Positions 8,672-13,475 of a DNA stretch of 17,287 nucleotides are shown one piece after another. Every line of letters starts with the position of its first letter. Position 1 is the stretch's first letter. Both the position numbers and the translations under genes were made by a program. The stretch lies in the IMG/VR virus record IMGVR_UViG_2713896795_000005, positions 1 to 17,287 of that record; one strand, written 5' to 3'. Source of the stretch: a virus. Its lineage: Duplodnaviria; Heunggongvirae; Uroviricota; Caudoviricetes. A model generated the notes under the pieces. The model saw nothing but the letters and a program-made list of their open reading frames with translations. It had not been told where the DNA came from and did no database searches.

Positions 8672-9075
8672 TGAATATACACAACAGAATTATAAAACAT
8701 ATTGAAGATGCACTAGCTACAGATTACGCCTTCGGTACTAATGATTGCAATATCGTAGCTTTACGTATTGTTGATGAAATCAAAGGCACTAACTGGTCAC
8801 AAGTTGCATCATATACATCACTAAAAGAAGGTGTAGCACAATTAAAAGAATTAGGATTCGAAAGTACACAAGATATTATTAGACAAGAATGCCAGGAAGT
8901 GAAAGTACCAATCGATGGGGATATTTGGTTAGATCCAGAGAATCCATTAATTATGGCAATAGTAGTATCCGGTCGTATGTTAGGTATTAATTATGATCAT
9001 ACTTCTTTCGAACTAATCAATAAAAAGAAAATAGGCAAGTATTATAGGAGTGTTAAGTATGGGGAGTCAAAATAG
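8656..9075 (+). CDS. Tail assembly protein, possibly NlpC/P60-like peptidase fold (gpK-like position)
   Basis: 139-aa ORF with a single Cys in an N-D-C-N context and a downstream His (INYDHTSF), the spacing seen in papain-like tail proteins. Weak, position-based call. Alternative start ATG 8671 overlaps the upstream stop. Confidence 0.35.
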
Positions 9076-12000
9076 TATTTTTGGTGCTCTAATAACTGCC
9101 GTGATGGTTGTAGCTGCCGTATATACGGGTGGGGCAACATTAACAGTAGCGACATATTGGGGAGCGGCAGCAGGTGCACTATCATTAGTAGCTACCAGTA
9201 TGCTGGGACAAGTAGGGGGACTAGCCGGATATTCCGATGTAGCAAGTGCATTACAGCGATCAACCAGTCCAACCAGTGGCCTACCTGTCATTTATGGCGG
9301 TAGTGCACCACACAAAAACGGTGTATCAGGCGGTAGCTTCGTATTAACGGGCGTAATCAATAACTGGTATAATGTCAAAGACGATAGCTCACAGTATTTC
9401 TTCAGTGAACAAGTAGTATCAATGTCCGGTACTGGAAATCACATTGAGCAGATTTACATGGATAACGAGCCAATTTTAGCAGTACCAGTTACTACCGATG
9501 GTATTATCCCAAAAGCTAATCTAGTTTCAAAATTCCAGCCATATCTACAAGTAGAAGTACGCTTTGGTGGTAATTACACAACTACAAAAGAACTAGCTAA
9601 AATATATGCGGGTCCGAAATGGACAGATAAATTCTTAGGTAAGGGTGTTGTATCAATCAGTACCGTAATCTATAAAACCGAAGATTCTACTATGGATGGT
9701 ATCTTAACTAATGATAACTTCAATATGACCGTAGAATTAAAAGGCCAGAATATATATGATTTCAATTCCGGTACTGTATTTGCTACTTCATGTCCAGCAA
9801 GTCAGATTTATAATTACCTAACTGATACTACATATGGTCTAGGTCTTGAACCAGCTTTAGTAAATCAGGATTCATTCACTGAAGTAAGTCAGTATTGTTT
9901 CCAACAGGAATTATATTCTAATGTCGCGATGTCTTATCAATCGACATATAAGGAGAATATAGAAACAATCCTACAATCGTTTGGCGGTATTATGTATGTC
10001 CACGCAGGACAGGTACACGTAACAGTAGACCGTAAAACTCTATCAGTATATTCATTTGATGAAACTAATATCTATGGTGAAGCAAGTATTACAACTTCCG
10101 GTAATGCTGATTACTATAACGTAATTGATGCACAATATACGAACATCGATACACTCTATACTACAGATGTATTGCGTATTCCATCAAATATTAGTAATGA
10201 CGATGTGGTTAATAGTGATGGACTGGTTATTACCTTATCCCGTGACTTTAAGGCCATCTATGATAAGGAAACCGTAGCACGTCTAGTTAACGCCGAACTA
10301 CGTAAATCTAAGTTCGCCAAACGTACTGTAACCTTTACAACTGCCGAAGGTTGGGATCTTCGTGTCTGGGATAGTATCAATGTTAACTTTAAAGAATTAG
10401 CAGTCTCTGGAAAGTTCAAAGTATTATCTAAATCAGTTGCAACTGACCAACAGAACGTAGGCTATGTAACAGTAACTGCCATAGAATATCCAGATGAAAT
10501 CTTTGATGGTGATGATCTAGGTATATGGAGTCCCGGCGGTGTTATCTCTGGTGATGCACTACGTCAAATATTACCACCTTCAAACGTACAGATTACGCGT
10601 AAGGGTGATACTACTACTGGTAGTGTTGTTAATATTTCATGGGATGCAAGCCCGTCCGGTAACGTTCGCGGGTACTATGTCTATTATAAACTCAGTACAG
10701 CCCAAAACTGGACAATTGCAGGTCAAACACCACTAGGTAAACTTGAGTTTGATCTATATGGTCTTGATACTGATTCTCATTATGACTTTGCAGTTAGTGC
10801 GTACAATATATTGGGTGGTGTATCTGTTAAAGCTACTGTTACGGGTATTAAACCAGAGTTTAACTTTACTCTTCCTGCAATCACTGGACTAAAACTAGTA
10901 AACGCAACAAGTGGACTACTCATTACTAATGAAACAGATTTTAATCTACGTTGGGATAGTCAGAAGAACCTTAAAGTAAATGGTAATTCATTTAGTGACT
11001 ACTTCAAATATTACGTAATTAAGATTTATGACGGTGCGGTACTTAGAGATACTTTCTATACACAGGAAAGCGGCTTTAATTTCTCCCTAGACTTGAACAA
11101 GTACAAACTACGTAAGCCAACTATTGGTATTATGGCACAGGGATTTTTATCTGGTACATTCTCCCCAGAAGTAACTATTACTCCCGAAAACTTACAATGC
11201 GGTCTAGTACAGGGCGTAGAAGTTGGTGGCGGATTTGGGAACTTATTTGTTAGCTGGACGGAATCAATCGAACCAGATTATGCAGGTGCACATATCGTAA
11301 TGCGTACTGATATTAGCACTACTTCATATATTAGTAATAAACCAGAGTTTGATAGTGTTCCAAATATCAAGGATGGTGACTATTGGGTAAAAGTGGGTCT
11401 ATTCGATGCCTTTGGTATGGATGATATCCAGTACAGCCCAGAAGTGAATATTAATATTAAATCGAAGTATCAGTTTACACAGGAAGACGCAGACGAGATC
11501 AATACAATCTTAGACCTGAATGATCGACTTGATGAAACTTTGAACAATGCAGTAAATGAAAGTAATGAGTATACTAATACTAAGATTACAACAGTACAGA
11601 ATAGTATTGATGGTAACACTGCAAAGATTACCACTCTTACACAAACTGTAGCAGATAATAATACGGCACAAACTACGGCTATCACTCAGCTTAAATCATC
11701 AACTGATGCAGGCTTTGCGAGTGTTAACCAGGAAATGAGCACAAAGGCAAATAAAGATTCTGTAAACGCTACGTATACATTATCCGTCAATGCTAACGGT
11801 ACTGTAGCTGGTTTTAAACTAATTGCCGATGGTGCAACTAATACCAGTGCGGTATATTTCGCGGCTGATAAGTTCGTAATATCTGGTACGGCAACTGCTA
11901 CTGTAGGTGGTGCAGCACCATTTACCGTAATTGGTGGTATTACTTATCTAAAAACTGCAATGATACAACAGGCGAGTATTGGTACGGCTTATATTGCCGA

Positions 12001-12262
12001 CCTGGCTGTAACCAATTCAAAAATTGCCAATGCAAGTATCAACGAAGCTAAGATTATCGATGCAAATATTACCTCAGCTAAGATTGCAAATACTATCCAG
12101 AGTAATAACTATGTTGCAAACGTTCAAGGCTGGCAAATTAATAAAGCTGGTACTTTCTATATTAATGGATCTGGCGGTACTGGTCGAATGGTAATCAGTA
12201 ATACAATGATTCAAGTATATGATAACAATGGTACGTTACGTGTGCGTATGGGACTATGGTAA
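9059..12262 (+). CDS. Tail tip / central fibre protein (lambda J-like host specificity protein)
   Basis: Recognisable resemblance to lambda gpJ: [13 protein letters not shown]...[11 protein letters not shown] region, a fibronectin-III-like segment ([26 protein letters not shown]...YYVYYK) and a C-terminal region with [14 protein letters not shown] / [22 protein letters not shown] 9059 has AGGAG 8 nt upstream; the track's 9050 start is GTG. Confidence 0.8.
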
Positions 12263-12275
12263 TAAATAAAAGCGT

Positions 12276-12305
12276 AGGTGAGGGAATTATCCCCTACCTT
12301 TTTTA
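12276..12305 (+). terminator. Rho-independent terminator after the J-like gene
   Basis: Imperfect hairpin AGGTGAGGGA / TCCCCTACCT followed by a T7 tract (12299-12305). Confidence 0.6.
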
Positions 12306-12318
12306 AAAGGATAATATT

Positions 12319-12522
12319 ATGTTTCAATATCTAAAAGACGAAGATGGCGTAATCAAAGCAGTTCTACTAACTAATATTTGTGAAATTGCCGCATCAGGTG
12401 ATGACTTTCTAATCATTAAATCAAATAACGTATCGTGGGAAGAACTACCACAACGTCTAATGGTTAATATGGATGCACTTTCGGGTAAAGATGAAGACAT
12501 TCAGGAAGGAGATCAAGAGTAA
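12319..12522 (+). CDS. Hypothetical small acidic protein
   Basis: 67-aa ORF with AAAGGA SD; its stop overlaps the next start (TAATG at 12520-12524). Confidence 0.5.
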   Translation: MFQYLKDEDGVIKAVLLTNICEIAASGDDFLIIKSNNVSWEELPQRLMVNMDALSGKDEDIQEGDQE

Positions 12523-12818
12523 TGGCACAAGGTCTACAATGCTGGAATGCAGCAGGGCAGATAGTAGTAGATTTGGGTGATTATAATATGCGTTATATGG
12601 GGGCAACTTCATTGAACATTGCATCAGGCACTACAAATACCTGGGGTGTTGCTTTCGGTGGTATGCGTACAACTGGCTGGCTAGCCGTTCCACGTTCCGT
12701 AGCATGGGGTACAGAATTTTACTGTATTCCTGGTAATGACGCATTTACAGTACGATATACTCCTACTGGTTATATCTATGCACAAACTGTAATTTTCGAT
12801 GTTTACTCATTTGGATAA
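12522..12818 (+). CDS. Hypothetical protein, paralogue A of a two-member family
   Basis: N-terminus GLQCWNAAGQIVVDLGDYN and C-terminal AFTVRY match the next ORF (GFNVYNAYGKLTVDSDN ... SFTVQY). Confidence 0.55.
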   Translation: MAQGLQCWNAAGQIVVDLGDYNMRYMGATSLNIASGTTNTWGVAFGGMRTTGWLAVPRSVAWGTEFYCIPGNDAFTVRYTPTGYIYAQTVIFDVYSFG

Positions 12819-12827
12819 GGATTATCT

Positions 12828-13475
12828 ATGTCAGGTTTTAATGTTTATAATGCGTATGGGAAACTCACTGTAGATTCTGATAATAGAGCTACTCTAATTT
12901 CTCAAGTTAAGGATATGGGCGGTCTAATTGATGTCGGTGCCTTCAATATTCCATCTGCTTTCGGTAATGGGTCTACACTAGGTTATATTGGCCTTAATTT
13001 CTTCCCCGCCGATGGTCTACGCTGGTTTCAACTATACAGTGATGGTAGATACTGCTTTCCTGGTGCATCGCTCTATGAAGCTGGTACAGGCCGTTTTATG
13101 CTATCTAATAATACTAATGCAATGACGTCTGGTTATCTTGATGTGTTCAATGGTGGCGGTGGTTTGATCTGGAGTGCTGCCAGTGCTGGTACTATGCCGC
13201 GTATACTGGACTTTTTCACAATTCCGGCTGGTCATGATCTGGCAAGTCCTATCACCTTCAATACCAATTTTGCTAATCCGTGGATTTGCATTAGTCAGTG
13301 TCCAGGTAACGTAACAGATGACGGTACTGTAGGTGGTTATTCCGGTATCATGATTCGTCGTAATAGTGCTACATCATTTACAGTACAGTACGTTAACAAG
13401 AACCAGATGAACTACCCCACGGCAATGGGATCATCACAAGTACAAATCGCACTAGCTGCCTTTACTGGTTATTAA
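12828..13475 (+). CDS. Hypothetical protein, paralogue B (longer, Gly-rich insert)
   Basis: 215-aa ORF with AAGGA SD, sharing N- and C-terminal motifs with 12522-12818. Confidence 0.55.
   Translation: MSGFNVYNAYGKLTVDSDNRATLISQVKDMGGLIDVGAFNIPSAFGNGSTLGYIGLNFFPADGLRWFQLYSDGRYCFPGASLYEAGTGRFMLSNNTNAMTSGYLDVFNGGGGLIWSAASAGTMPRILDFFTIPAGHDLASPITFNTNFANPWICISQCPGNVTDDGTVGGYSGIMIRRNSATSFTVQYVNKNQMNYPTAMGSSQVQIALAAFTGY

Follow-up and report, generated by a model that had tools for sequence, protein, structure and literature searches.

A J-like tip protein without a receptor-binding domain and a downstream cassette with a candidate receptor-binding protein in an uncultured or prophage-derived siphophage

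The tail region analysed here, a window of 17,287 nucleotides of the IMG/VR virus record IMGVR_UViG_2713896795_000005, probably codes for a two-part tail tip, in which the trimer of a J-like protein devoid of a receptor-binding domain (RBD) is completed by a downstream gene cassette that supplies receptor binding, with the protein gp215 as the candidate receptor-binding protein (RBP). All the features described are on the plus strand. A megablast search with positions 9000-14000 against the phage collection gave no match, so no sequenced phage is nearly identical to the window. Delegation of receptor recognition to separate small proteins had been proposed in a first-pass annotation of this DNA and is supported by the missing Ig_GpJ_C domain, the PHROG assignments, the synteny and the YncD-typed relatives.

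The J-like central tail fibre or tip protein (9059..12262, 1067 aa) has its start at 9050 or 9059, with an AGGAG 8 nt upstream of the ATG at 9059. Pfam identified Phage_Tail_Tip (E 1.3e-21) and fn3 (E 9e-8), and Phage-tail_3 scored 20.4 bits, under the 23-bit Pfam cut-off. The protein matched phrog_31 'central tail fiber J' with an E of 2.5e-52 over profile positions 494-1302 of 1565. No match to Ig_GpJ_C was found with Pfam at E<=0.001, the FNIII-A_GpJ and Ig_J domains were not found by Pfam either, and NCBIfam gave no match for this protein. The likeness to lambda J noticed at first holds at the profile level only, since the best BLASTP E value was 0.034, not significant. The same annotation had the protein lacking the receptor-binding domain of lambda, and this was borne out: lambda J has Ig_GpJ_C at residues 1001-1132, and domain mapping placed neither this nor another C-terminal receptor domain in the J-like protein, the T1 J protein ending alike. 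The closest full-length relative is a protein of Escherichia phage DCP80 (29% identity over 96%), which has 163 additional C-terminal residues. No similarity was found between this extension and gp215.

The J-like protein had also been described as ending early, but its endpoint is the same as in the J proteins of T1, HK639 and IsaakIselin. Of its 1067 residues, 23 lie beyond Phage_Tail_Tip, which extends to residue 1044, and the equivalent positions are 1151/1172 in T1, 1133/1154 in HK639 and 1173/1192 in IsaakIselin. Over the last 74 aa (12038..12262), identity with the ends of these J proteins is 59% for HK639, 57% for IsaakIselin and 55% for T1. With the first 800 aa, BLASTP similarity to all three is at best marginal, with an E of 0.018 for HK639 and short low-identity matches for IsaakIselin (E 7e-5) and T1 (E 1.5e-6). 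The C-terminus also recurs in the PDB entries 7z4b_EA and 9ze4_N. By sequence comparison, a large class of J-like or tip-fibre proteins has '...LRVRMGLW' as its natural and conserved C-terminus, and we infer that this distal tip is the docking site for the downstream proteins.

Three coupled small ORFs follow J, as first reported (12319-12522, 12522-12818 and 12828-13475). They are preceded by a hairpin (12276..12305; RNAfold -11.8 kcal/mol, z -1.6) with a UUUUUU tract, which was not called by a consensus terminator scan. A terminator is annotated at the corresponding place in T1, and the hairpin might act as a weak one. The first gene (12319..12522) codes for gp67, a small acidic protein of 67 aa with no Pfam or PHROG match. 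An E. coli prophage has a 61-aa homologue (37% identical, E 3e-12) in the equivalent place, and none was found in HK639, T1 or IsaakIselin. The gp67 gene overlaps the gp98 gene by TAATG, and 9 nt separate gp98 from gp215. NCBIfam gave no match for any of the three products. Inspection by eye revealed no signal-peptide-like N-terminus in any ORF of 12263-13536, nor did gp67, gp98 or gp215 show a signal peptide, a lipobox or a transmembrane segment. The next gene (13537-13863) codes for a DUF2730-like protein and adjoins a lysozyme gene.

The protein gp98 (12522..12818, 98 aa) belongs to phrog_7961 and gp215 (12828..13475, 215 aa) to phrog_4524. As to gp215, the identical protein P0001 has a precomputed Pfam match to PF28254 (DUF8377), and so does each of the 96 homologues. 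Both had been taken for paralogues with common motifs at the two ends. Pairwise BLASTP between them gave an E of 0.06, and default hhalign of their families aligned the N-terminal 18 residues only (E 7e-6). Permissive hhalign aligned the gp98 family to residues 1-90 of the gp215 family (probability 92%, E 6e-7), running through a hairpin motif common to both N-termini and through a YCxPG motif. Judging from these profiles, the gp98 family is homologous to the N-terminal half of the gp215 family; the paralogy thus stands for that half and fails at full length. The C-terminal motif 'FTV[RQ]Y' that they were thought to share was aligned only in an alternative that is not significant (E 0.006-0.012). 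An internal duplication of gp215 was not significant by hhalign of its two halves (E 0.005). Mean column identity is 64% in the gp98 family vs 57% in the gp215 family, gp98 being the more conserved. A gp98 split off from the lambda Ig_GpJ_C domain was discarded, as it has no similarity to lambda J residues 960-1132. No J-RBP fusions were found with the DUF8377 profile among 1.84 billion representatives, the 78 matches being essentially all standalone proteins of 200-260 aa, and an apparent fusion in Cronobacter, a gp98 homologue under a 'tail fiber' annotation, came down to unannotated gaps.

The hairpin motif is found three times: at the N-terminus of gp98 (GLQCWNAAGQI, 12531..12563), at the N-terminus of gp215 (GFNVYNAYGKL, 12834..12866) and inside gp215 (GYLDVFNGGGGL, 13131..13166). 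A strict regular expression found only these three sites in the six-frame translation of the window, having been derived post hoc from the same three sequences. The first motif is the most conserved segment of the gp98 family (entropy 0.35 bits) and has the lowest pLDDT of the model (68). The second, aligned to the first with an hhalign E of 7e-6, is also conserved and of low pLDDT (63). The third lies within the most conserved DUF8377 block (residues 101-120, entropy 0.6-0.8 bits), and remote relatives retain 'SGYLD[VC]F..G.L.WS'. That the N-terminal hairpins are the most conserved and yet the least confidently modelled is as expected for partner-dependent interface elements, and it makes them concrete, testable candidates for the J-docking element.

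Structure prediction of both products, a check suggested from the start, was carried out on single chains. The gp98 model is a single beta-sandwich similar to lectins, to lectin domains in pyocin fibres and to the receptor-binding domains found C-terminally in tailspikes. For gp215 the top structural neighbour is the cryo-EM-validated LptD-binding RBP of phage Oekolampad. The PDB sequence matches of gp98, gp215, their family profiles and the T1 proteins ST31 and ST32 were only chance matches to antibody V-domains.

Homologues of gp98 and gp215 adjoin J in 44-59 phage records by tblastn, including IsaakIselin and IME347. They are found side by side and adjoining J in HK639, NBD2, PHB17, Skenny, Cronobacter SG01/ENT39118 and others, and the same adjacency, with the gene order of the window, is found in E. 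coli, Enterobacter and Serratia prophages. Prophage homologues reach 73% identity, pointing to a host within the Enterobacteriaceae. In IsaakIselin (Bas10) the genes beside J belong to phrog_7961 and phrog_4524, as gp98 and gp215 do. Both IsaakIselin and IME347 are experimentally YncD-dependent, and alleles of the J-adjacent locus match receptor specificity (PMC8594841). Furthermore, a YncD-associated protein family at this locus is called a bona fide RBP in a 2026 preprint (10.64898/2026.04.02.716166), in which the YncD-specific family is delimited by >30% identity over approximately full coverage to the RBPs of YncD-dependent phages. Compared with the IsaakIselin and with the IME347 homologue, gp215 has 34.1% identity at 100% coverage in each case, which places it in the family as a borderline member only just inside the limit, and its receptor may therefore be another one.

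From this domain content, homology, synteny and predicted folds we infer an arrangement of the tip in the virion, with its stoichiometry, docking mode and receptor. The trimeric J-like protein would build the tail hub and a central straight fibre that ends in the short conserved tip. The RBP, gp215, would sit on the tip of the J trimer by non-covalent attachment and would bind a monomeric outer-membrane beta-barrel protein, by homology most likely the TonB-dependent transporter YncD or a relative. An accessory role, as adaptor at the J/gp215 junction or as assembly factor, would fall to gp98, and the N-terminal hairpins of both proteins would dock onto J. The J tip and the small genes would move as a cassette between unrelated siphophage backbones. 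For analogous loci, AF2-Multimer favoured a monomeric protein of ~23 kDa capping the J trimer (PMC12309495).

An unlikely alternative is that gp98 is itself the receptor-binding module, a trimeric Ig- or lectin-like cap that replaces Ig_GpJ_C, gp215 being then a chaperone or a non-virion factor. The compact beta-sandwich, like those of tailspike receptor-binding and pyocin lectin domains, would suit such a role, the protein is encoded directly after J, and its equivalents are reported to resemble the lambda C-terminal Ig-like domain and to allow modelling as trimers on the J tip (Matusiak et al., PMC12309495). However, gp98 has no sequence similarity to Ig_GpJ_C and is more conserved than gp215, multimer models in the literature preferred the larger protein for the cap (PMC12309495), and in the solved LptD-class RBP, the structural neighbour of gp215, it is also the larger protein that binds the receptor.

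Two further explanations have somewhat lower probability. Very unlikely, in our view, is that the large fibre (32..3676, 1214 aa; phrog_6921 'tail fiber protein', E 1e-181) alone sets the host, the J tip serving only for penetration or triggering and the small proteins being dispensable decoration. This fibre is large and multi-domain, and it carries a C-terminal Peptidase_S74 intramolecular chaperone (E 2.6e-13) typical of receptor-binding fibres; having its own chaperone, it does not need gp98 or gp215 for folding. But the lateral fibres of T1 and T5, which it resembles, bind surface glycans reversibly, and the tip RBP performs the irreversible step (PMC8594841), so the fibre, offered at first as another possible site of receptor recognition, is less likely to be the terminal recogniser. 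It is probably the lateral, primary-receptor fibre, which would carry out initial, reversible glycan binding, and dispensability would make the conservation of the J-tip/RBP cassette difficult to account for. Even more improbable is that the small proteins lie outside the adsorption apparatus, as morons or as membrane-associated or superinfection-exclusion proteins expressed as their own unit behind a terminator. The terminator-like hairpin after J would fit this, and exclusion genes do occur in such loci of other phages. In addition, older annotations name the T1-family homologues at the gp98 and gp215 positions 'outer membrane protein' and 'membrane associated protein', which counts against an RBP reading. 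Against a role outside adsorption, gp67, gp98 and gp215 by eye lack the signal peptide, lipobox or transmembrane segment that the exclusion proteins Cor, Rtp45 and bas10_0024 have, analogous proteins have low membrane-affinity estimates (PMC12309495), and from lineage to lineage the cassette and the distal tip of J vary together.

As to the geometry of the proposed two-part tip, one gp98 (one hairpin-led beta-sandwich module) and one gp215 (two such modules) could form a pseudo-trimeric cap with each of the three hairpins on one J chain, a speculative idea that we consider doubtful. The count of one plus two modules recurs in T1 ST32/ST31 and in the F-pyocin proteins PyoF11/PyoF12. If true, such a cap would turn a three-fold fibre into an asymmetric head fitting a monomeric outer-membrane barrel, and would give lambda-like tips with monomeric receptors a general way of breaking symmetry. 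We found no solved structure for the tip of this class, and the cryo-EM structure of T1 does not resolve residues 821-1172 of J, its distal portion.

A J protein without RBD combined with a separate RBP locus has already been published for Drexlerviridae, Dhillonvirus and F-type pyocins. With no built-in RBD in J and genes that match a known cassette, the window is an ordinary further example of the described design. Its interest is that sequence allows a YncD-like TonB-dependent transporter to be predicted as terminal receptor for an enterobacterial siphophage that is uncultured or prophage-derived, and that the J-tip/RBP cassette is found here in a backbone related neither to Drexlerviridae nor to lambdoid phages. 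This added case supports the view of an exchangeable host-range module, useful for phage engineering.

The nearest system is the YncD-type locus of the Drexlerviridae IsaakIselin (bas10_0026-0025) and IME347 and of the lambdoid phage HK639 (gp24-gp25), with the same order and sizes (~100 and ~215 aa), the same hairpin motifs and a J C-terminal tip shared at 57-59% identity over the last 74 aa. The proteins of the pair have only 31-45% identity to those of the window. Unlike these phages, the window has a pb9-like distal tail protein, a split hub with Gp84_N and DUF6950, no FNIII-A_GpJ and an extra 67-aa gene before the pair. Besides, the locus is convergent to J in IsaakIselin and co-directional in the window. 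IsaakIselin bas10_0024 has a signal-peptide-like N-terminus, whereas the window cassette has no such adjacent gene; by eye, no gene for a cognate superinfection-exclusion lipoprotein or periplasmic protein, frequent and not universal in such loci, was seen in 12263-13536, which counts against the proposed reading.

The FhuA-type locus of T1, N15 and HK022 (in T1, ST32 of 101 aa and ST31 of 229 aa, then Cor) has the J endpoint of the window and, in T1, the same succession of terminator, ~100-aa gene and ~220-aa gene. ST32 begins MAYGISTWDANG and ST31 carries the internal hairpin motif GMAIWDASGKL. The PHROGs (557 and 425) differ from those of the window, and only the hairpin is alike between the profiles, with an E of 2e-4 over 13 residues and an E of 0.015. 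These phages use FhuA as receptor and, unlike the window, carry the Cor exclusion gene. The Oekolampad (Bas18) LptD-binding RBP (PDB 9RPT) has 9-14% identity and a different receptor class, and HMM searches of the PDB gave no sequence-level match to it.

With lambda gpJ the window J has in common, at profile level, the hub, fn3 and Phage_Tail_Tip architecture. Lambda J continues from Phage_Tail_Tip (845-972) into the covalent Ig_GpJ_C receptor domain and also has FNIII-A_GpJ and Ig_J domains, all three absent from the window J. In F-type pyocins, which unlike the window are Pseudomonas tailocins, the J-like PyoF10 has no receptor domain, as in the window J, which matches the F2-pyocin fibre 25vf_A (E 6.6e-10). 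PyoF10 is followed by PyoF11 and PyoF12, with one and two Ig-like domains, a proposed distal receptor module of predicted function (PMC13455828) that resembles gp98/gp215 in architecture. No sequence or fold homology was found between the RBP candidate of the window and T5 pb5. T5 works in the way proposed here, with a trimeric central fibre (pb4) without receptor domain and a separate tip RBP (pb5) that targets a TonB-dependent transporter, and like the window it has a large lateral fibre with an S74 chaperone and a distal tail protein with a pb9-like B domain.

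The window, 17.3 kb with a GC content of ~38%, spans the tail and lysis genes of a siphophage or prophage. It begins with a 1214-aa fibre carrying a C-terminal Peptidase_S74 chaperone (32-3676), followed by a small tail-tube-like gene (3749-4477), two small ORFs (4543-5240), the tape measure protein (5227-7425), a pb9-like distal tail protein (7492-8046), a hub protein with a Gp84_N attachment domain (8048-8671), a DUF6950 protein (8656-9075), the J-like protein (9059-12262), three small ORFs (12319-13475), a DUF2730-like protein (13537-13863), a lysozyme (Phage_lysozyme) on the minus strand (13829-14281) and a SegE-like GIY-YIG homing-endonuclease gene (14320-14757). 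No near-identical DNA was found in the phage collection. E. coli, Enterobacter and Serratia prophages share this gene order, with protein identities of 60-75%, indicating that the host is very probably an enterobacterium.

Some features outside the tip genes can be described here. The 1214-aa fibre gene is located upstream of the tail-tube gene and not after J, and residues 15-404 of its product match the 'major tail protein' phrog_158 (E 3e-23), followed by fibre repeats and the chaperone; both this position and the N-terminal domain are unusual for a side fibre. The tail-tube-like gene, coding for 152 aa, is split by a 270-nt insertion (3920-4189) that is missing from a near-identical contig. 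Rfam identified a complete group I intron there (RF00028, 3910-4134, 81.9 bits for a gathering score of 50, E 3e-21), and the insertion contains no ORF of 30 aa or more. That a gene for a tail structural protein of an enterobacterial phage should carry a self-splicing intron may merit separate study. The lysis and mobile region (13537-14757) comes directly after the small genes that follow J. Here the DUF2730-like gene overlaps the 3' end of the convergent lysozyme gene and contains, just before the overlap, a bidirectional terminator-like hairpin (13801-13819).

The start of the J-like protein at 9059 is sound, with an AGGAG at the correct distance before the ATG. The first-pass annotation had matched this protein to lambda gpJ, and the match holds at the profile level only: the protein aligns to positions 494-1302 of the 1565-position profile phrog_31 'central tail fiber J' (E 2.5e-52), which extends ~260 positions past the end of the protein, but direct BLASTP against lambda J (from NC_001416) gave a non-significant best E of 0.034. 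Pfam detected fn3 and Phage_Tail_Tip, with Phage-tail_3 below threshold. The protein had also been described as ending early, where lambda continues into its receptor-binding domain. A Pfam domain map of six J proteins supports this stop point, since in lambda J (1132 aa) Phage_Tail_Tip (845-972) is followed by the Ig_GpJ_C receptor-binding domain (1001-1132), whereas in the window J (1067 aa) the best match to Phage_Tail_Tip (992-1044) is followed by 23 residues without any further domain. The J proteins of T1 (1172 aa, Phage_Tail_Tip at 1016-1151), HK639 (1154 aa, 1000-1133) and IsaakIselin (1192 aa, 1039-1173) likewise stop ~20 residues after it. The protein is not truncated, however. Its end, '...LRVRMGLW', is a conserved natural C-terminus, identical in HK639 and matched by '...LRVRMGLF' in IsaakIselin and '...LRIRIGSW' in the SU10 tip-fibre protein 7z4b_EA.

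Among full-length relatives the J-like protein of Escherichia phage DCP80 (1252 aa) is nearest, with 29% identity across 96% of the length. It departs from the window sequence directly after 'GW.I.K.G', so the end of the tail-tip domain marks a real module boundary. In place of separate small genes, DCP80 has a 163-aa C-terminal extension after Phage_Tail_Tip (922-1089), without any Pfam family match. The 141-kb DCP80 record (PQ671644; 8899-12657 in our comparison sequence L004) is classified as Straboviridae/Gaprivervirus. Because T4-like genes (motA, endonuclease VII) occur in it alongside siphophage-like tail genes, the record may be a chimera or wrongly classified. In a 73%-identical prophage of E. 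coli GCA_051182335.1 (2359-3587 in L006) an IS element with a rve-family transposase interrupts the J-like gene, separating a 156-aa N-terminal fragment from the 960-aa remainder, and this tip gene is probably inactivated.

The small ORFs are packed as originally described: gp67 (12319-12522, 67 aa) overlaps gp98 (12522-12818, 98 aa) by TAATG, and gp215 (12828-13475, 215 aa) starts after a 9-nt gap. Between J and gp67 there is a bulged hairpin with a U-tract (-11.8 kcal/mol, z -1.6) that is weakly terminator-like and was not called by a consensus terminator scan; in T1 a terminator is annotated at the corresponding site. The acidic gp67, whose translation is coupled to that of gp98, is conserved in none but the closest prophage relatives. 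It has no family matches and is absent from HK639, T1 and IsaakIselin. An E. coli prophage keeps a homologue with 37% identity (E 3e-12) in the corresponding location, and gp67 is therefore probably a real gene. The paralogy of gp98 and gp215, previously based on shared N- and C-terminal motifs, stands for the N-terminal half of gp215. Pairwise BLASTP gave E 0.06, and default hhalign aligned only the first 18 residues of the two families (probability 84%, E 7e-6), while with a lower alignment threshold the 98-aa family aligned to residues 1-90 of the 215-aa family over 73 columns (probability 92%, E 6e-7), including a second motif, EFYCIPG in gp98 and RYCFPGA in gp215. The C-terminal motif pairing (FTVRY/FTVQY) arises only in the non-significant alignment with the C-terminal half (E 0.006-0.012), and the two halves of the 215-aa family do not match each other significantly either (E 0.005). 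Hence gp98 is best regarded as homologous to gp215 over the N-terminal half of the latter.

The tip of J seems to travel with these genes. Over its final 74 residues the window J shares 59, 57 and 55% identity with the C-termini of the HK639, IsaakIselin and T1 proteins, respectively, whereas its first 800 residues are at best marginally similar to them (E 0.018 for HK639; short low-identity matches for IsaakIselin, E 7e-5, and T1, E 1.5e-6) and 27% identical to DCP80. Among the 30 best-ranked tblastn records for J, those matching its C-terminal quarter best (lowest E, 33-36% identity) were phages also carrying gp98 and gp215 homologues: HK639, Flotzy, LMessi, LLS, Eeyore, CharmingMan, Skenny, IME347, TH30 and the mtp phages. 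This quarter was also matched, at 32% identity and with weaker E-values, by several Pseudomonas phages outside the gp98/gp215 homologue matches. On these comparisons the J tip and the small genes behave as one cassette. gp215 matches phrog_4524 (E 8e-56), with an identical database copy carrying PF28254/DUF8377, and gp98 matches phrog_7961; bas10_0025 and bas10_0026 of IsaakIselin belong to the same two PHROGs. When 1.84 billion representatives were scanned in full with the HMM, only 78 clusters resembling DUF8377 came up; nearly all of these are standalone and 200-260 aa long, with no fusion to J among them.

AlphaFold2 models of gp215 and gp98 were confident (pLDDT 86.9 and 86.2) and all-beta, and in a viral model library gp215 matched only uncharacterised phage proteins of similar size, some from Acinetobacter and Pseudomonas phages. 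A hairpin-like motif, G-h-x(1,2)-h-[WYF]-[ND]-x-x-G-x-h (h, hydrophobic residue), is present at the N-termini of gp98 and gp215 and at residue 102 of gp215, the last in the stretch that is most conserved across the family; its restriction to these three sites is descriptive because the expression was built from the same sequences. Remote relatives of 229-262 aa retain the N-terminal and internal copies. In T1, ST32 starts with MAYGISTWDANG and ST31 has an internal GMAIWDASGKL, a link with weak profile support (E 2e-4 over 13 residues; E 0.015). The N-terminal hairpin is the least confident part of both models (pLDDT 63-68), yet the most conserved in sequence, which fits an element ordered only against a partner. 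These motifs are candidate docking elements.

The most likely model, which we consider rather probable, is that a J trimer would build the hub and straight fibre, its conserved tip would dock gp215 as the receptor-binding protein (RBP) for a monomeric outer-membrane barrel, gp98 would be an adaptor or assembly factor and the large fibre would bind glycans reversibly. Alternatively, gp98 could be the true receptor module. Matusiak et al. (PMC12309495) described J-like spikes that lack the Ig-like domain and precede two further proteins, one small and Ig-like, the other 'hand-like' and ~23 kDa in mass; their multimer models prefer the larger protein as cap. The small proteins might also be non-virion membrane or exclusion proteins: the T1 counterparts, which fall in other PHROGs, bear legacy 'membrane protein' labels. 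Against this reading, by eye no signal peptide or hydrophobic segment was seen in gp98 or gp215. A further alternative would make the large fibre the sole host determinant. In Drexlerviridae, Dhillonvirus, Nonagvirus and Seuratvirus, Maffei et al. (PMC8594841) showed that the allele at the 'bona fide RBP locus' beside gpJ tracks the terminal receptor. The proposal of the first-pass annotation that receptor recognition is delegated to separate proteins is essentially right, and the finding is real. With gp215 as RBP, the best guess for the receptor is YncD, required by IsaakIselin (Bas10) and IME347 (Maffei et al., PMC8594841), a tentative choice given that the typed homologues share just 34% identity.

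A 2026 preprint (10.64898/2026.04.02.716166) confirmed four unrelated protein families in the RBP locus, linked to FhuA, BtuB, LptD and YncD, and the LptD class has cryo-EM validation (10.1101/2025.07.07.663478). In the T1 cryo-EM structure J residues 821-1172 are not resolved (PMC11945409), and sequence searches of the PDB with gp98, gp215, their family profiles and T1 ST31/ST32 gave no true match; therefore no solved tip structure for this class was found in these sources. In the F-pyocin structure paper (PMC13455828) PyoF10 lacks a receptor domain, and PyoF11 (one Ig-like domain) plus PyoF12 (two) are the proposed distal receptor module. Speculatively, gp98 (one hairpin-led module) and gp215 (two) could provide three hairpins for the three J chains in a pseudo-trimeric cap, and if so three-fold symmetry would be broken to suit a monomeric receptor; T1 and F-pyocin have the same 1+2 module count. 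The cassette is a published arrangement without a new mechanism, of modest interest for its hairpin motifs and because the backbone that carries it differs from those of lambdoid phages and Drexlerviridae.
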